Notes: generated by a model from the sequence alone, not told the origin. A stretch of DNA of 64,000 bases from Bacteriovoracaceae bacterium (GCA_048270185.1 JBLWTJ010000001.1:1120001-1184000); one strand, 5' to 3'. Shown: positions 56,319-64,000, numbered from the stretch's first letter. Made by a program: numbers and translations.

Positions 56319-56394
<76 letters not shown>

Positions 56395-56452: not shown

Positions 56453-56729
56453 GCCTTTTTTCTTCTCTTAACATTCAATTTCATAAAACTAGCATGCCTC
56501 TTTGCATGCTTAAACGATTCTATGTTCCACTCTGCACGAAACGCTGACATAATTCCTGCCATGACAGCACAAAGTGACAAGTTTACTGCCATTGTCTGAG
56601 AAAAATAAAAAATACTTTGCGATTTTTCGACAGATTTAATCGATAAAAATATAACCTCCACATCAAAACAACTTAATAAAAAACAAGGCTTCAAACAAAC
56701 TGTGAGAGTCTAATAAACCGGAGGAATTT

Positions 56730-57230
56730 ATGAAAAAAATTATCGCACTTGCTGCCGCACTACTAAGCGTTTCATCTTTTGCACTTGATGCATCTGATTC
56801 ATGGTCAACAATCAAAGCTGAAGTAGCTGCTGATTACGATCTATCTTTTACTGGAACAACTGTATTTGTTGGACGTCCAGTTAGCGCATTTGACGTTTGT
56901 CTTGATGGTGATCAATTCGTTACAACTAGAGAATTCCCAATTTACGAAATCGTATTTGTTGGTAGAAATCACTCAGAAGCTGACGAAGATGGTTATGCTT
57001 CAGTAATCGTTGGATACGAAATCCTTTCTTTCCCAACTACTTATACTTCATACAAAGAAGTATGTAAGAACGATGACAAAAACTGTAAGAGAGTTGCTTA
57101 CACTGTTAACCAAGATCTTGTTAAGAACGTTTCTGTAAAAGAAGTTGTTAGAAGAAATGTTGGTAAGAACGATCGTACAATCGAGAGAACACTATTTAAG
57201 AAATCTTTCGAAATCCCAGCTTGTAACTAA
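56730..57230 (+). CDS. Secreted 4-Cys beta-rich protein A1 (unknown family, 4 paralogues here)
   Basis: GGAGG RBS; signal peptide; WSTI, FDVC, LSFP, CxxxxxxC, IPACN. Confidence 0.85.
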   Translation: MKKIIALAAALLSVSSFALDASDSWSTIKAEVAADYDLSFTGTTVFVGRPVSAFDVCLDGDQFVTTREFPIYEIVFVGRNHSEADEDGYASVIVGYEILSFPTTYTSYKEVCKNDDKNCKRVAYTVNQDLVKNVSVKEVVRRNVGKNDRTIERTLFKKSFEIPACN

Positions 57231-57286
57231 TAAATACAATAGCTTAAGCGTTATCCCTAAGGCGCTTAAGCTATATATTTTATAGC

Positions 57287-58114
57287 ATGACTAGATTCAC
57301 GAACCTATTCATGCTATTTCAACAGCTTATGATAAAAGAAAACTCACCAAATACGGCCCTACAAAAAATGGGACTTATCGAGCAAGTCAGCTATGACCTG
57401 GATAAGAAGTTGCGCGAGTTTAAGAATGTAAAAATTGGAGTTAGGCTAATTTCGGAAAAGTCAGGAGTTAGTGAGAGAACGATCTATCGCCTACTGGCCA
57501 AAGAAAACAAACCAACTTATCAAACTCTTTATAAACTCTATCGAATTATTTTCAATACAAGCAATGAATCACTACTTCTAACCCTTGTCCCAGATGTTAT
57601 TCGTGAAGAGATTAAAAAGTGTAATCCAAATGTCATCTCCCAACAAATTCAATACCACGAAGAAGTTGAAGCACAGATGGCCTATGATCGCACTTTTGCA
57701 GAAATTTACATTATGGCAGCATGTGCACCGATAACAACAGAGCTTATTCAGTACCGCTACGGTATGAGTGGAATGTTAACTGTTGAGAAGATGCTGGAAA
57801 TGAAGACCCTTGCCCAGACAAAATCTGGTACTTATATCCTTGGTGAAAACCAAGCTAATTTTAGTGCTAAAACACTAAAGCGATTAGGTCTTTCTCTAAC
57901 AGAGAAATACTGTAAACCACAGAACGCAGAAAGCTTTGGTGAGAATATCATCTCATTCTTTGCTGATGGATTAAGTGAAGAAGCCTATGACAAATGGCTT
58001 GAAATTGATGCAAGAGCATTTCAAGAAAAAGTTGCTATTGCTAACTTAGAAAAATCAAAAGGAACAAAGAGAGCTTTTACTTTTAATGTAACAGACTCTT
58101 TAAGTGAGAAATAA
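57287..58114 (+). CDS. XRE-HTH transcriptional regulator R1 (possibly TIGR02147/DUF4423-related)
   Basis: ISEKSGVSERTIYRLL....PTYQTL HTH; paralogue of 59588-60385; start uncertain (57287/57311/57329). Confidence 0.7.
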   Translation: MTRFTNLFMLFQQLMIKENSPNTALQKMGLIEQVSYDLDKKLREFKNVKIGVRLISEKSGVSERTIYRLLAKENKPTYQTLYKLYRIIFNTSNESLLLTLVPDVIREEIKKCNPNVISQQIQYHEEVEAQMAYDRTFAEIYIMAACAPITTELIQYRYGMSGMLTVEKMLEMKTLAQTKSGTYILGENQANFSAKTLKRLGLSLTEKYCKPQNAESFGENIISFFADGLSEEAYDKWLEIDARAFQEKVAIANLEKSKGTKRAFTFNVTDSLSEK

Positions 58115-58115
58115 G

Positions 58116-58670
58116 ATGAAATTATTACTACTACTTCTATTATCAATATCAATCTTTGCAACAGGAGGAGTTGGTGGTACTTCAGGTGGCCCAAAACCGA
58201 AGAAAGATGATTTTGAAAAAATTGGACCAAAGACACCTTGGAGTGAAATCCAAGATATCGCAAAGATTAATAAAGAAGTTAAAATCGCTCATACAGCGAT
58301 CTTCGTTAGTCGTCCACTAAATGTCTTTGATGTATGTGTTGATGGTGACGAGTTTAGATCTGTAGCAAAAGTTCCAAAATACAAGAGAATGCTTGTTGGT
58401 AAAACTCATTTCGGAACTGATGAAGATGGCTACAAAGACGTTAAAATTGGAAATGAGTTTCTACGCTTCCCTATTAACTACACTAAGTATGAAACAAAGT
58501 GTGAGAATGACAATAGAAGATGCCGTCGCGTTAAAGTTGAAGTTAACCGTGAAACGATTAAAGAACTAGAGATTAAAAAAGTTAAGACTTATAAGCCAAA
58601 TAGTGACAATCCTAGAGAAGTCGTTCTCGATAAGAAGAGAAAGGATTACGTTATCCCATACTGTAATTAA
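58116..58670 (+). CDS. Secreted 4-Cys protein B1 (paralogue of A with Gly-rich N-terminal extension)
   Basis: ATG 1 nt after the R1 stop; signal peptide, TGGVGGTSGG, FDVC, IPYCN. Confidence 0.85.
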   Translation: MKLLLLLLLSISIFATGGVGGTSGGPKPKKDDFEKIGPKTPWSEIQDIAKINKEVKIAHTAIFVSRPLNVFDVCVDGDEFRSVAKVPKYKRMLVGKTHFGTDEDGYKDVKIGNEFLRFPINYTKYETKCENDNRRCRRVKVEVNRETIKELEIKKVKTYKPNSDNPREVVLDKKRKDYVIPYCN

Positions 58671-58696
58671 GAATTAGATTTCATATAAAATACTTT

Positions 58697-58723
58697 AGGC
58701 CACTCGAAAGAGTGGCCTTTTTT
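58697..58723 (+). terminator. Intrinsic terminator ending module 1
   Basis: aggccactc-gaaa-gagtggcct plus T run. Confidence 0.9.
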
Positions 58724-58928
58724 GACTTAAACTCCATGAAATTTACTGTATTTTGTCCATTTGTCATATTTGACCGATCAAACTTGGACAATGTCTGGCA
58801 AAAAACAAGTTCATCTCCACAAAAATTGTCACATTATTTTCGAGGCCATAATTTCTCCCCATAGCAAAAACTGAATAACAAATTTGTTTTAAAAACAAAT
58901 CATATCAACAAACAATTCGGAGGAATTT

Positions 58929-59423
58929 ATGAAAAAAATTATCGCTCTTGCAGCTGCAATCCTAAGTGTATCAACTTTCGCAATCGACGCTTCTGACTCA
59001 TGGTCAACAATCAGAGAAGAAGTTAAGGCTAGCCACAACCTAGTAATGTCTTCTGGATACACAGTATTTATGGGTACTACAAGAACTACTGCTTTCAACG
59101 TATGTGTAAACGGTGAAAACTTCAATACAACTACTGAATTCCCAATCTACGAATACGTAAGAGTTGGTGGTGGTAAAGATGGTGACAACTTCAAAAAAGT
59201 TATCGTTGGTTACGAAATCCTTTCTTTCCCAATCGTACGTGAAGTTACTAAGACAATTTGTTACGGTAAGAACGACAACAGATGTAAAACTGTAACTGAA
59301 ATCGAAGAGCAATCAACTGTAAAAGATATCACAATCTCTAAAATCGTAAGACGTGGTGGAGACCGTGATGACAAGCTAGTTAAGCTTTTCACAAAATCAT
59401 ACGTAATCCCAGCTTGTAACTAA
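58929..59423 (+). CDS. Secreted 4-Cys protein A2
   Basis: Same RBS/start context as A1 (cggaggaatttatgaaaaaaattatcgc); FNVC, VIVGYEILSFP, IPACN. Confidence 0.85.
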   Translation: MKKIIALAAAILSVSTFAIDASDSWSTIREEVKASHNLVMSSGYTVFMGTTRTTAFNVCVNGENFNTTTEFPIYEYVRVGGGKDGDNFKKVIVGYEILSFPIVREVTKTICYGKNDNRCKTVTEIEEQSTVKDITISKIVRRGGDRDDKLVKLFTKSYVIPACN

Positions 59424-59587
59424 GATACTCGCTCGGATCACTTGTAAGCGTCTTATCCCTAAGAGGCGCTTACTTTACCGATATAACAATGGCCAAGGAT
59501 TCCCTACCTTGGCCTTTGTAATTTTTACTACTTACATGAATTAACCCCTTAAAAATGATAATATTGGCCAAATTGAGATGAGGCATA

Positions 59588-60385
59588 ATGAGAGAAGAGA
59601 TTTCTAATACAATCAGTGACTTAGATACTGCCAGGCCAGTTGGTCTTAAGGCACAGGTTGCTAATGATATTAGAGAGCATCTGGCTCAATTTCGAAATGA
59701 ATCAATTGGATTAAGAAAGCTCGCTGAAAAATCAGGAATCCATCAAAGAACTCTTAAGCGTCTAATCGCTCAAGAAAACCGTCCTGGTTATCAAACGTTA
59801 GTTCGTCTCTATACCTGCCTAGTCGAATCATCAAATGGTGGTTTACTTCTAAAGAATCTTCCTGAAAAAGTCGCAAACGAAATACAAAAGAAATCTCCAA
59901 TATCAACTGAAGGTAGTCTTAAGTATAGTGAAGAGGCCAATTCAGAAATGTTCTACGACAAGGTCTTTTCAGAAATCTATTGCCTAGCTTCAATGTCTCC
60001 TATTACAAGTGAATATATTCAATACCGTTATGGGATGAGTGGAGTTGAAACAGCAGATAAGATGCATGATCTTGGAGTCTTAAAACTTACAAAGAATAAA
60101 TCATATACGACGGGTGATATTCAAATTGAATTCTCTCCAAAGCTTGTCAAAAGACTAGGACTTAACCTCGTGGAGAAATATTCAAAAACTGAAGATGTCG
60201 ATTTAGCAGAAAAGAACTTAATTGCTTTCTATGCTGAAGGACTAAGCCCAGAAGGTTACAGAGAATGGCTTAAGATTGACCAACAGGCATTCTACAAAAA
60301 GATCGAAGTAACAAAAAAAGAAGGCATGTTAGGAAATATTAAAACATTTACTTTCATGGCCACAGACACAATGAAAAAAGACTAA
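59588..60385 (+). CDS. XRE-HTH transcriptional regulator R2
   Basis: LAEKSGIHQRTLKRLI..ENRPGYQTL; shares IQYRYGMSG, KRLGL.L.EKY and EGLS.E.Y..WL.ID with R1. Confidence 0.75.
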   Translation: MREEISNTISDLDTARPVGLKAQVANDIREHLAQFRNESIGLRKLAEKSGIHQRTLKRLIAQENRPGYQTLVRLYTCLVESSNGGLLLKNLPEKVANEIQKKSPISTEGSLKYSEEANSEMFYDKVFSEIYCLASMSPITSEYIQYRYGMSGVETADKMHDLGVLKLTKNKSYTTGDIQIEFSPKLVKRLGLNLVEKYSKTEDVDLAEKNLIAFYAEGLSPEGYREWLKIDQQAFYKKIEVTKKEGMLGNIKTFTFMATDTMKKD

Positions 60386-60402
60386 GAGAAAAAGGATATA
60401 AA

Positions 60403-61002
60403 ATGAAATTATTAATTAAAATTCTTATTCTTTCTCTTTCATTAAATGTCTTTGCAGGAACAGGTGGGATTAGCTCGCTATTTGGTTTCGGAGATAAAGA
60501 TGGAAAAGGAAAGAATGGAAGAGTAGATGCTGGTACAGGCGGTATCGTTGGCGGTGTCGATGAGCTAAAAGATCTTCAGCATAAAGACTGGAGTACAATT
60601 AGAGAAGCCGTTAAACAAGACTACAAGCTTGACCTTCAGGGGGATATTGCTTTTGTTGGGAAAATTGTCTCAGTTTTTGATGTTTGTATCAATAATGATA
60701 AAGTTCAAACAATCTCAAAACATCCAGTATATAAGCGAGTACGCTTAGCTGGAAACAGAGATAATGATCGTTATAAAGATGTTGTGATCGGACATAAGAG
60801 ATTGTCTTTCCCACTAACGAGAGAAGTAAAAAAACAAATTTGTTTTGGAAAGAGAGATAATAATTGTCGCGAGTACACTGAAGTTGAAAACTTTTCGCAG
60901 ACAAAGAAAATCACTCTACGTGTCGAGAAAAAGCATAGTAGAGAAAATATCGAATATAAGGATGTTTTCACAAAGCCTTATGACGTACCTTACTGCCAAT
61001 AA
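60403..61002 (+). CDS. Secreted 4-Cys protein B2
   Basis: AAGGA RBS; signal peptide; AGTGG repeats; FDVC, LSFP, VPYCQ. Confidence 0.85.
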   Translation: MKLLIKILILSLSLNVFAGTGGISSLFGFGDKDGKGKNGRVDAGTGGIVGGVDELKDLQHKDWSTIREAVKQDYKLDLQGDIAFVGKIVSVFDVCINNDKVQTISKHPVYKRVRLAGNRDNDRYKDVVIGHKRLSFPLTREVKKQICFGKRDNNCREYTEVENFSQTKKITLRVEKKHSRENIEYKDVFTKPYDVPYCQ

Positions 61003-61021
61003 TCAAAAATAAGTGAAAGAC

Positions 61022-64000
61022 CTAGGCTTCTACGCCTAGGTCTCTTTCATTACTCTTTATTTCTAATTTAATTGAATTACTTGAAATTTTGAAACGAACA
61101 CCATGTTCGAAGCGCCCCTTAACATTATCTCTTAAAAGATCCTTTGTTAGCTCTTCTTCACATCTTAGAGTTCCACTTGCAGTGATACCTATTGAACGAT
61201 TTGGATTTGTATAGATTTTAACAAAATCAATTTTAGAAAGGACAAACGGCAATGATTCGATATAAGACTTGATTCCATCAAAATGGCGGCCTTTAACAAT
61301 CGTCTCTATTGTTGAGTCATCAAGGAATAAACTGGCATCAAATTCAATTTTCGAAAGAGCTACCTCGAGAGTATCTTTCATACTTCTTAAACTTTGTTTC
61401 GCTTCGCGATTTAGTTGTAGTTCCTTTTCCTTTTTCTTTCCTTTAAGGCTTCTTGACTGCTCTCTTAATAGCTCTAGAGATTCAATAATAGTCTTTGACT
61501 TCACTGTCTCTTGGTGAATATTAAGATTTAAACTTTCACACTCTGAGCGCAAGTCACGAATTTCTAAAGAAATTCCTTCTAATAGCTTACGACTATTACG
61601 ATTGGTATCATGGGCATCCTCAAGACTAGCAATAAGCTCATCTTTCTTCAGAAGAAGCTCTCCCTTTACTTTCACCGCTTCATCAATACTTTCTTTTAAA
61701 GTTATTCTCTCTTGAGTTGATTTATCTAATTTTTCTTCGAGATCATCAACTAGAGCTGATGCCTTATTTACTTCATTACGACGGGCCTTATATTCTTTTT
61801 CAACAATGGCCTTTTCATCAAGTTCAATCTTTAAAAGTTCTAGTTTCTCACTATGTAGTTGGTTTACTTGTGCCAGCTCAGAGTTACTTCTTTCAATTTC
61901 TTTACCTAGATGAATAATTTCACCTTTAGCATTTCTCGTATCTTGTTCAAGCTTTTTAATTTCTTCACTCAATTGAACTTTTCTAACGAGATTGGACTCG
62001 AGATTATCTTCTATTTCATTAATCTCAGCCTCAAGATTCGCCATTGAAGATCTAAGTTTATAACAGCTATTTTCTATTTTTGTTAACTCTTCATTACTAA
62101 CAATATTCTTATTCTGAAGCTCCTTACTCTTAATTAGTAACTCGGCTTTCTTATTTGTAAGCTCTGTATGCTTTTGATTCTGAGTTTCGATTGTAAAGAC
62201 GATATTTTCAATACTCTTTTCTGAATCGTTTATAAGACTATTAAGTACTTCTAATTCTGTTTGTATAAGTTTGTGTTGATCTTCATTTTCAGAAACTTTT
62301 AAATTCAGGGCTACAATACGATCATCAAGATTCTTCTTAGATAGAAGTCTAGCATCATATTTCTTATTCTTATTTGATACTTCTGAACGAATCCCCTCTA
62401 ATTGGTCTTCAAGGTTTGAAGCAATTTTAGCTTTCTTAGAAATAAGCTTATCAAGTCTCTTATTATTATTTTCAAGAGATGCCAGTTCAACTTCTTTCTT
62501 TGTAATACCATCTTTTAAAGTTACGATAATATTTTCAGATTCTTCAATTACTTCTAAGTTCTTAGCATGAAGTTGTGTATTTTTATTGATCTCATTATTT
62601 AACTGATCAATTTTACTCTCATACATTGAAATCTTATCTTCAATCGTTTCTAGCTTTGCGATAGTCGAATTAAGCTTGTCGCATAATTTATCGGCAATTG
62701 AAGAAAGACGATTATTTTCAGTCGCCAACTCCTCAACGGCAATTGCTTTTGCTTCAATTCGATTATTACCTATCTCAATTCGCCCCTTCAGGCTTCCAAG
62801 AGTTAAAAGTAATTCATTATTTGTATTATTTAATTTTTGTTCATCTTCTGATAATAGGCCTTGAAGAACATCTTGAGCTTCAACCTCTTCCAGTAATGCT
62901 TCTTTTGCTCTTGTCGATTTCTCCACCTTTAAGTTTAATAGATCGATACTCTTTCTAAGTCCTGAAATCGTAGTTTCAAGAGATAGCTTTTGAGTAGTAA
63001 GACGATTCTTTTCAAGCTCTAGGTTAATGATAGACTCACGAGCTTCAACCTCACTACCCTTTAACTCATTTAAAAGATGACGATGGTCGATCATTTCATT
63101 TGTAGCATTCTTAATCTGTTCTTCAAGACTTAGAATTTTCTTTTTGCGATTTGCATTATTAAATAGAGCTTTTGATTCTTTTGCCTTCAGCTCTTTAAGA
63201 CTCAAGTTAACTCTTTCAAATTCTTTATTTAACTCAGCAACACGATTATCTAATCTTATGCTTTCCGAAAGAACAGCTTCATATTCTTTCTTTGACTTCT
63301 TATAGTCACGATCAACTTGATCAATCTCGATAAGAGAAGATCCTTCTCTCGTTCTTAGTTCATCAAGCTTCTGCTTAGTTTCAACAATTGCCTTCTGAGT
63401 TTCAACAATCTTATCTTGGTATTTTTTGGTTTCATTAGCTAGAATCTTTAGATCTTCTACTAACTCTACTCTTTTCTTCTCTTTCTTCGTTAAATCTCTT
63501 TCTAAATCTTTTAAAGTTTCAAGTTCAACCTTCTCTGTTGTTTTAGTTGAACTCATCTCTGTCTCTATTGATTTAATTTCCGAATTTAGACGAGTAATTG
63601 ATTGTTGAATCTTTTCTTGGTTCGAATTGATCTCTCTAATATTTTCAATTCTAATAACGATTTCTTTTTCAGCTTCAAGCTTTTGCTCCATCAGGTTTGC
63701 TTGCTCAAGCCTTCCCTCTTCAAGCTTTGTTAATGCCTGCTCTCTATTGACCTTGAGTTTTTCACTCTTATCAAGTAAGTGTGAAACTTCCTTATTTAGC
63801 TTGATTCTTTCACCATCGAGAATTTCAATCGATTTATCACACTTGAGAATTTCTTCATTATCAAGTTTAATTTGTGCTTCAAATTTCTTAATTCTCTTCT
63901 TCGTTTCTTCTATTTGAGATTTAAGTCCACTATGAACATCTGTATTGCTAACACGATTACCACTTAGAACGTCAGTTTTACTCTTAAGAGTACTCTCTTG
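61022..64000 (-). CDS. Very long coiled-coil protein (partial; start beyond right edge, >=992 aa)
   Basis: Frame stays open from 63691 to 64000; continuous heptad E/K/L/I pattern with a small globular C-terminus. Confidence 0.8.
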   Translation of the reverse strand, partial: QESTLKSKTDVLSGNRVSNTDVHSGLKSQIEETKKRIKKFEAQIKLDNEEILKCDKSIEILDGERIKLNKEVSHLLDKSEKLKVNREQALTKLEEGRLEQANLMEQKLEAEKEIVIRIENIREINSNQEKIQQSITRLNSEIKSIETEMSSTKTTEKVELETLKDLERDLTKKEKKRVELVEDLKILANETKKYQDKIVETQKAIVETKQKLDELRTREGSSLIEIDQVDRDYKKSKKEYEAVLSESIRLDNRVAELNKEFERVNLSLKELKAKESKALFNNANRKKKILSLEEQIKNATNEMIDHRHLLNELKGSEVEARESIINLELEKNRLTTQKLSLETTISGLRKSIDLLNLKVEKSTRAKEALLEEVEAQDVLQGLLSEDEQKLNNTNNELLLTLGSLKGRIEIGNNRIEAKAIAVEELATENNRLSSIADKLCDKLNSTIAKLETIEDKISMYESKIDQLNNEINKNTQLHAKNLEVIEESENIIVTLKDGITKKEVELASLENNNKRLDKLISKKAKIASNLEDQLEGIRSEVSNKNKKYDARLLSKKNLDDRIVALNLKVSENEDQHKLIQTELEVLNSLINDSEKSIENIVFTIETQNQKHTELTNKKAELLIKSKELQNKNIVSNEELTKIENSCYKLRSSMANLEAEINEIEDNLESNLVRKVQLSEEIKKLEQDTRNAKGEIIHLGKEIERSNSELAQVNQLHSEKLELLKIELDEKAIVEKEYKARRNEVNKASALVDDLEEKLDKSTQERITLKESIDEAVKVKGELLLKKDELIASLEDAHDTNRNSRKLLEGISLEIRDLRSECESLNLNIHQETVKSKTIIESLELLREQSRSLKGKKKEKELQLNREAKQSLRSMKDTLEVALSKIEFDASLFLDDSTIETIVKGRHFDGIKSYIESLPFVLSKIDFVKIYTNPNRSIGITASGTLRCEEELTKDLLRDNVKGRFEHGVRFKISSNSIKLEIKSNERDLGVEA

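Follow-up and report, generated by a model that had tools for sequence, protein, structure and literature searches.

A lineage-restricted cassette of two predicted exported paralogues and a putative regulator in Bdellovibrio-like bacteria

Introduction

One question raised by the genome of a Bacteriovoracaceae bacterium (GCA_048270185.1) is what function may be served by a three-gene module that occurs twice in tandem at positions 56730-61002 of a stretch of 64,000 nucleotides (JBLWTJ010000001.1:1120001-1184000, one strand, hereafter the window). Each module contains a gene for a small protein with a signal peptide (A), a gene for a putative DNA-binding regulator (R) and a gene for a paralogue of A (B). 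An earlier note on this DNA, made from the sequence alone, recognised no family for A or B and proposed a regulated two-subunit extracellular system. Here, this proposal is followed up by sequence and structure searches, comparison of related genomes and codon analysis. A regulator gene beside genes for exported proteins is an ordinary arrangement. What is new is the protein family, the conserved duality of A and B, an operator-like repeat and the codon-bias rank of A, all within a lineage-restricted cassette.

Results

The module and the domain common to A and B

Six open reading frames (ORFs) were found on the plus strand in the order A1, R1, B1, A2, R2, B2, that is, two tandem A-R-B modules, as the earlier note had read them. 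The window's genome (3.35 Mb in 30 contigs) contains these four A/B copies only. The four proteins aligned over about 145 residues with 28 invariant columns, including W25, C57, C112, C119 and C165 (A1 numbering), and the cysteines lie in the motifs F[DN]VC, C-x6/7-C and P-x-C-[NQ]-end; the single domain with four invariant cysteines claimed for all four secreted proteins is thus present in each of them. The most distant pair, A1 and B2, gave a BLASTP E value of 2e-25 at 34% identity, and R1 and R2 were 44% identical (E 2e-77); judged by these alignments, the similarity within both sets is not due to chance. No internal repeats were visible in the A/B alignment. The AlphaFold model of A1, built from a 39-sequence alignment (predicted local distance difference test, pLDDT, 88.6; predicted template modelling score, pTM, 0.71), consists of a short helix at residues 25-34, after the signal peptide, followed by 12 strands, in agreement with the beta-rich domain that had been predicted.

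A and B can be told apart by their ends. The A-type C-terminus is PAC-N, with some variants, and the B-type C-terminus in main-type modules is PYC. In B, the glycines G18, G20, G21, G24 and G25 (GxGGxxGG after the signal peptide) were invariant in 20 of 20 B-type sequences, which makes the Gly-rich extension described earlier a hallmark of the type. Since a Gly-rich stretch also follows the signal peptide in the R-downstream B of a Bdellovibrio-type genome and of a second module type (see below), the A/B split is old. The first and last cysteines are retained in members that lack the middle pair, which suggests disulfides C57-C165 and C112-C119. Both proteins would be exported by way of their Sec signal peptides. 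Charge complementarity between A and B was tried as an argument and rejected: in this genus a basic B accompanies an acidic or neutral A, and the relation fails in other genera.

Searches of A and B against described families and solved folds

In Pfam, no match was obtained for A1, B1 or B2, and A2 gave a chance-level E value of 0.24; in NCBIfam there was none for A1 or B1, and A2 (E 0.044) and B2 (E 0.069) gave chance-level values only. PADLOC gave no match for A or B, and PHROGs gave only E values of 0.014 or more. When 46 of the 150 listed distant relatives were scanned, none was over the cut-off and two had sub-threshold chance matches; precomputed Pfam domains were absent from all of the 28 + 31 listed homologues. 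A protein atlas search with A1 and with its Bdellovibrio orthologue yielded no usable match. The only sequence match in the PDB, 6jf1 ('Lipoprotein', E 0.043), was rejected as a low-quality alignment without the cysteines or motifs.

The A model was then compared with known structures. Foldseek against the PDB gave a best E value of 0.65, and its top matches for A reached at best Z 2.5 on re-alignment. An exhaustive structural aligner run over 48,161 chains gave a best Z of 3.3, well under the 7-8 reported as typical for unmatched models. No pilin-like fold matched above Z 2.5, and among the viral models of BFVD the best E value was 0.11. A missing fold match does not by itself prove a new fold; within these searches, no described family takes in A and B, in line with the earlier note, and no solved fold was matched. 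A complex prediction for mature A1 and mature B1, each with its own alignment, scored 0.01, a value that counts neither for nor against binding.

Distribution of the cassette

The closest named homologues of A, B and R were 'hypothetical proteins' of Halobacteriovorax and Bacteriovorax strains. An order-level scan with a four-sequence profile gave a match in 30 of 201 genomes, and in eight of the nine other genomes of the same genus. Twenty loci were fetched around A/B matches. The complete A-R-B order was found in 13 (L034-L046), which bears out the prediction that the synteny recurs; five of the 13 carry two modules, in four cases preceded by an additional lone A. A and R were otherwise arranged in three further loci, and the last four hold a lone, distant A-like gene. 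In the sister genomes (loci L034-L036 and L038) the order is A0-A-R-B-A-R-B, with three A copies in tandem; A0 is 82% identical to the module-2 A and has its own exact copy of the GACAWTGTC site described below.

Beyond the order, a profile search of 1.84 billion representatives returned 234 A/B homologues at E <= 1e-3 and 58 at E <= 1e-10, nearly all of 140-200 amino acids (aa) and matched over their full length. Phylum-level scans found R in 90 of 401 genomes and A/B in 74. In one other family of the phylum (f9), each of the 21 R-bearing genomes has an A-family match on the same strand, some 100-210 bp 5' of R. The fetched Bdellovibrio-type and related loci comprised eight with A-R, one with A-A-R and one, in family f9, with A-R-B, in which R and B overlap by 4 nt. 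A second, divergent module type occurs in Halobacteriovorax-type genomes; it consists of R and B overlapping by 4 nt, accompanied in some cases by an A that is transcribed divergently. A pattern scan for R peptides, taking one genome per species, gave 20 loci, named as Halobacteriovorax, Bacteriovorax, Bacteriovoracaceae, Halobacteriovoraceae, 'Oligoflexia' and Bdellovibrio, with one labelled 'bacterium'. An A/B-family gene directly adjoins R in 17 of these 20; seven have A-R without B and four R-B without A. All homologues that carry an organism name come from Bdellovibrio-like predator taxa, a restriction that applies to the named members only. A-R, the order of Bdellovibrio-type genomes, is the ancestral and most widespread core, with B frequent and not universal, and the duplication into two modules is confined to some genomes of one genus.

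A scan of 56 neighbours revealed that the flanks differ between genera, and that no usher, chaperone, CsgEFG-like or secretion gene is conserved. Because the flanking genes are not conserved between genera, the cassette is an autonomous unit. No integrase, transposase or repeat boundary was seen near the modules. No paper on these genes and no mention of Bd1644 or Bd1645, the R and A orthologues of B. bacteriovorus, was found in literature text, and journals or supplements outside that coverage could hold some; the one mention of 'DUF4423'/'TIGR02147' that was found concerns another paralogue.

Unequal rates and concerted evolution of A and B

Within the genus, A orthologues are 83-90% identical and B orthologues 52-72%, and in the maximum-likelihood tree the end branches of B are about 5-10 times longer than those of A. 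This contrast in rate is the pattern that would be expected of an abundant protein with a rarer, faster-evolving relative. In spite of the distinct ends of the two types, the A and B of one module have features in common. In module 1, both A1 and B1 have C-x6-C and a 3-residue insertion, and in module 2 both proteins have C-x7-C; in one genome, A and B carry the identical cysteine loop CRNRNRDSNC. The A and B labels need six changes on the tree, and A and B of the same locus are sisters at L046 (support 100/99) and L043 (87/97). These patterns point to concerted evolution in some lineages, either by gene conversion or by B having been re-derived from A and having regained B-type ends; gene conversion would be the simpler course. 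Concerted evolution of this kind is compatible with A and B having to match in shape or contact and is not proof that they do.

An inverted repeat upstream of A

The palindrome GACAWTGTC was found at -115 to -147 from the ATG in A upstream regions of related genomes, exact in 16 of 24 and in 19 when up to one mismatch is allowed. The loci that hold these regions, 247 kb in all, contain only 21 exact sites. Genome-wide it is not over-represented (20 sites, mostly within ORFs, vs 33 for a control pattern). A regulon for this site was considered and rejected: the sites lie mostly inside ORFs, and the intergenic ones besides the A2 site have no common theme. Upstream of Bdellovibrio-type and second-type A genes, the half-sites occur at other spacings and often twice, as GGACAA-N-TTGTCC or GGGACATGTCCC. 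The long-spacer pattern is present once or twice per genome, and in three of the four genomes searched it lies upstream of the A of an A-R pair. The rare inverted repeat of GGACA/TGTCC half-sites, present 5' of A genes across the phylum, is a phylogenetic footprint specific to the cassette. As R is the only conserved DNA-binding protein of the cassette, we infer that R binds this repeat upstream of A. R looks dedicated to the module, as the earlier note had proposed, in view of its conserved place there and of the rare repeat 5' of A, which it would bind.

The candidate operators lie about 35 nt upstream of the putative -35 elements, a position that would suit an activator. The putative A1 promoter was read by eye, was missed by a consensus scan, and is conserved in orthologous upstream regions.

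Hairpins after A and coupling of B to R

Both A genes in the window are followed by a hairpin. Its loop of 10-11 nt, T[T/A]TCCCTAAG, does not vary among six genomes of the genus, while the stems covary. In the alignment, 90.8% of cells were paired, vs 29-43% in slid controls; nine of 12 pairs change on both sides, and the covariation score of 0.737 (0.299 in shuffles) was reached by 0 of 500, although the covariation largely separates the two module types, so that it represents fewer independent events than cells. The window's genome contains these two conserved-loop hairpins only, and other genera have an ordinary terminator after A instead. Conservation of the loop points to the binding of a factor or to a processing site, more than to simple termination. 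Strong terminator-like hairpins lie 3' of B1 and B2, and a further one between A2 and R2 (Table 1).

A palindrome covers the possible starts of R1, an arrangement also present in the orthologous module-1 spacers of sister genomes, and no Shine-Dalgarno sequence was found at any of the three candidate R1 ATGs. The message for R1 may be leaderless, or its translation may be under the control of a hairpin. The R1 stop codon lies 1 nt before the B1 ATG, or overlaps B1 by 11 nt if the GTG start is used, and the R2 stop codon lies 17 nt before the B2 ATG; in several relatives R and B overlap by 4 nt. The close coupling of B to the regulator described earlier is therefore present in both modules.

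Expected abundance

In order to rank expression signals, a self-consistent codon adaptation index was calculated over the 2,547 ORFs of at least 150 aa in the window's genome. A1 and A2 ranked 5th and 6th (99.8th percentile), in keeping with the high-expression codons attributed to A, vs percentiles of 89.6 for B1, 76.2 for B2, 60.6 for R1 and 68.6 for R2. The reference set converged on the ribosomal proteins L9, S1, S2, S6/S18 and S4, EF-Ts and trigger factor, and also included an OmpA-family protein, a porin-like protein, AhpC and ATP synthase alpha. The strong ribosome-binding site of the A genes was likewise confirmed, the start region CGGAGGAATTTATG being identical at A1 and A2. Because of the codon bias, the hairpins or terminators after A, and the start of B right after R, a contrast in abundance is expected, with A probably very abundant and B rarer.

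Three of the 15 most codon-biased other ORFs that were scanned have no Pfam match (loci L104, L108 and L112), and two of these three have signal-peptide-like N-termini. Such ORFs may encode further abundant, uncharacterised proteins of this organism.

The regulator R

The earlier note called R an XRE-HTH (helix-turn-helix) regulator. Against HTH_3, R1 and R2 scored 17.8 and 20.6 bits, both below the Pfam gathering cut-off of 23, and 22 of 29 R-family members were matched at E <= 1 (best E 6e-6). In the R model (pLDDT 77.8, pTM 0.41), residues 18-100 resemble the XRE regulators 3fya (Z 7.6, root-mean-square deviation 3.1, 68 aa), 3f51 (Z 7.4) and 1y9q (Z 7.3), values in the middling range of the tool. 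Residues 110-215 resemble the winged-helix protein 4g6q_B (Z 9.4, root-mean-square deviation 3.5, 99 aa), HlyU, CzrA and RosR (Z 7.4-7.6), and ArsR/MarR proteins at Z of about 7; the best Foldseek match of the model was the MarR-like ST1710 (E 0.038). As modelled, R has the five-helix HTH fold of the Cro/C1 type and, in its C-terminal domain and at fold level only, a winged HTH, and it would be a cytoplasmic DNA-binding protein. The XRE-type domain thus stands, but R is not a plain XRE protein, a second winged-helix domain being present. From XRE/Cro-C1 regulators such as C.Esp1396I and ClgR, whose fold the modelled N-terminal domain has, R differs in its sub-cut-off HTH_3 score, in the second winged-helix-like domain and in having no known sensor or oligomerisation domain.

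The Bdellovibrio orthologue of R is labelled 'DUF4423 domain-containing' by a public source. Members of the DUF4423/TIGR02147 family (PF14394) have about the length of R (250-290 aa) and its layout, in which a helical domain of about 165 aa comes after the N-terminal HTH; they form expanded paralogues in Bdellovibrio and are uncharacterised, like R. However, the Pfam model misses every R locus in the window's genome (G000) and in a Bdellovibrio-type genome (G317), where it is over the cut-off at two and 19 places, respectively, and it matches none of the 29 R-family members at E <= 1. No NCBIfam match to TIGR02147 was obtained for R at E <= 1. A profile-profile comparison of R with DUF4423 (hhalign) gave a probability of 43.5% and E 2.4e-4 over 131 colinear columns. 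One DUF4423 copy in G317 sits about 1.6 kb upstream of a lone A-family gene.

The R genes of the window's genome are R1, R2 and one weak, third R-like gene of 244 aa (locus L056, G000:C3:55053-58721; ORFs at 671-1444, 1444-2178 and 2242-2736). It has one base in common with the stop codon of the gene upstream, which encodes a 257-aa exported protein, and it faces a convergently transcribed gene whose product is a Cys-rich, exported protein of 164 aa with the C-terminus IPKCL. By eye the latter is like A; it was rejected as an A-family member, the profile match lying only in the signal peptide (probability 15.7%).

Features and neighbours of the locus

The features are collected in Table 1. On the 5' side, the modules are preceded by a folE2-type GTP cyclohydrolase gene (Pfam GCHY-1, E 1e-64) with a terminator-like hairpin, and a tRNA-Val gene (56319-56394) lies between this gene and A1. 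On the 3' side of B2, and convergent with it, lies a gene for a very long coiled-coil protein, which continues past the end of the window (61022-64000, minus strand, at least 992 aa); its terminator-like hairpin is common with B2.

Table 1. Positions of genes, candidate signals and hairpins at the locus, counted from the first nucleotide of the window
Feature	Position	Strand	Description
A1	56730-57230	+	166 aa; four-Cys, beta-rich protein, predicted exported; signal peptide ~1-19; predicted very high expression
R1	57287-58114	+	longest ORF 275 aa; likelier start 57311 (267 aa) or 57329
B1	58116-58670	+	184 aa from ATG; 188 aa from GTG at 58104; predicted exported paralogue; GxGGxxGG
A2	58929-59423	+	164 aa; second copy of the predicted abundant, exported protein
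R2	59588-60385	+	265 aa; second putative regulator
B2	60403-61002	+	199 aa; longer Gly-rich extension with two AGTGGI motifs
Candidate operator of A1	56588..56596	.	GCCATTGTC; one mismatch to GACAWTGTC; 142 nt before ATG
Candidate operator of A2	58787..58795	.	GACAATGTC; exact GACAWTGTC; 142 nt before ATG
Putative sigma-70-like promoter of A1	56626..56655	+	TTCGAC, 18 nt, TATAAC; leader ~75 nt
Putative sigma-70-like promoter of A2	58826..58853	+	TTGTCA, 15-16 nt, CATAAT/ATAATT; conserved in orthologues
Hairpin after A1	57239..57274	+	12-bp stem, conserved loop TTATCCCTAAGG, then T-rich tract
Hairpin after A2	59444..59473	+	same conserved loop (TCTTATCCCTAAGAG), different compensated stem
Palindrome over possible R1 starts	57282..57317	.	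17-nt arms, 2-nt gap
Terminator-like hairpin ending module 1	58697..58718	+	9 bp, 6 GC, T tail
Terminator-like hairpin between A2 and R2	59491..59514	+	
Terminator-like hairpin ending module 2 and the convergent coiled-coil gene	61018..61043	both strands	

Discussion

The reading that we prefer, and on which we stand about evenly poised between acceptance and doubt, is that R controls the abundant, exported A through the GGACA/TGTCC repeats, that R and B are made together at a low level, and that B is a tethered or specialised partner of A outside the cytoplasm. In such a system R, with its two DNA-binding-type domains, would bind the inverted repeats upstream of the A promoter, and A would be made from a short, very highly expressed message ending at the hairpin. 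R and B would come from one message at a much lower level, with the translation of B coupled to that of R. After export by the Sec route, A and B would be beta-rich domains of unrecognised fold, each held by the two predicted disulfides. B would be a rare, fast-evolving partner or variant of A, its flexible Gly-rich N-terminus perhaps serving as a tether or anchor, and the pair would act together in the envelope of the predator or at the interface with the prey.

Several observations weigh against this reading. Same-module neighbours lie 1.4 kb apart, and gene conversion between them could account for the indels common to A and B without any physical interaction. Depending on the lineage, the half-sites are 0, 1 or about 9-11 nt apart, an odd range for dimeric regulators of a single family; no GGACA/TGTCC repeat was seen before R2, and the palindrome is missing, even at one mismatch, from four of the five regions upstream of module 1 in sister genomes. 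No sensor domain is recognisable in R, and no export signal beyond the Sec signal peptide was seen in A or B. Finally, Bd1645 (Q6MMI4), the A orthologue of B. bacteriovorus, is represented by five unique peptides in supplement file 3 of PMC12546842, where its profile is flat through the predation cycle (3.25-3.90 on the scale of that table), and in supplement file 2 of PMC3627812 Bd1645 and the R orthologue Bd1644 have a handful of RNA-seq reads. Since Bd1645 is unremarkable in these tables, high expression of A may be a trait of Halobacteriovorax only, and the rise in A copy number to two or three in that group would agree with this.

Two kinds of known system invite comparison. Curli have the major and minor paralogous subunits CsgA and CsgB with the regulator CsgD nearby, and the cassette is like them in having a pair of exported paralogues, of which one should be abundant and the other rare, with a transcription factor at the locus. 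It differs in that A and B would be compact, disulfide-stapled beta domains, not Q/N-rich amyloid repeats, and, from both curli and chaperone-usher systems, in that no dedicated secretion or assembly genes lie beside the modules. In RRNPP systems, an XRE-HTH regulator is encoded next to an exported signal peptide. Here too an XRE-type HTH gene adjoins a gene for an exported product, and ComR is among the fold matches of the R HTH (Z 6.9), but the R model comprises the HTH and the winged helix only, without the peptide-binding tetratricopeptide repeat domain that would serve as sensor, and A and B are folded proteins of 145 aa, not short propeptides.

Of the two-subunit system proposed in the earlier note, the recurrent gene order and the codon-based contrast between A and B were upheld, but assembly, usher or secretion genes are not conserved alongside. 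A filament or a surface layer is possible, and nothing at the locus supports either specifically, no assembly genes being present. A broader form of the idea, that A and B are a new-fold family forming an abundant extracytoplasmic assembly found in predatory Bdellovibrionota alone, such as a coat or envelope scaffold for predation or for self-protection against the predator's lytic arsenal, with B as anchor or nucleator of the bulk subunit A by way of its Gly-rich N-terminus and R setting the A:B ratio through the GGACA/TGTCC repeats, seems to us rather unlikely as a whole.

One important question is whether A and B are partners at all. R may simply control an abundant housekeeping or stress protein A, periplasmic or secreted, within an ordinary regulon, with B a diverging duplicate in a separate or redundant role and no association between the two. 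A-R without B is common (nine of the ten fetched Bdellovibrio-type and related loci and seven of the 20 named ones), and R-B without A is found in four of the 20, so that either protein can be present next to R in the absence of the other; several genomes have lone A-family genes at other places, and the flat course of Bd1645 in the table of PMC12546842 would be expected of such a protein. However, the hallmarks of B are kept phylum-wide (the Gly-rich stretch and the place directly after R, with PYC in main-type modules), which argues for a distinct role, under selection and tied to the module, and A and B of the same module keep loop lengths and even identical cysteine loops. We consider this explanation doubtful, while granting it real weight. 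A bi-component secreted effector, in which the fast-evolving B, with its disordered Gly-rich N-terminus, would target or enter the prey envelope and A would supply the bulk activity, is in our view decidedly unlikely. It draws on the restriction of the named homologues to predator taxa, on the rate of B, about 5-10 times that of A, as expected in an arms race, and on the small size, predicted export and putative disulfides of both proteins; but the searches turned up neither a catalytic motif nor a family or fold match, the surroundings contain no conserved immunity or secretion gene, and a codon bias at the level of ribosomal proteins and porins better suits a structural or bulk envelope protein. 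Bd1645 was, moreover, not induced at any predation stage in the table of PMC12546842.

The adjacency itself might have no regulatory meaning, R being an antitoxin-like or mobile-element HTH protein and A and B its passengers. R gave weak matches to the dnstrm_HI1420 antitoxin model (19.7 bits at E 7.7e-4, and 15.6 bits, vs a cut-off of 27) and to PHROG repressor families (E 3e-4), and the module is duplicated in tandem. All these matches are sub-cut-off and cover the HTH only. A type II (HigA-like) antitoxin was rejected for R on that ground and because both neighbours carry signal peptides, with which A and B cannot be cytoplasmic toxins. No mobile-element gene or repeat boundary was seen, and the pair and its cis element are conserved across two deeply separated families of the phylum. 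This explanation is very improbable and already disfavoured.

Bdellovibrio-like predators are studied as living antibiotics, and much of their lineage-specific secreted proteome has no assigned function. The present cassette adds to it a protein of unrecognised fold, with codon bias of ribosomal or porin grade, distributed phylum-wide with a regulator of its own and an operator-like repeat. If A is truly among the most abundant exported proteins of marine Halobacteriovorax, it would be a prime candidate for a major envelope or predation factor. The module would also be a compact example of concerted evolution between a major and a minor paralogue, and, with the orthologues Bd1644 and Bd1645 in B. 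bacteriovorus and the genetic tools available there, the hypothesis is directly testable.

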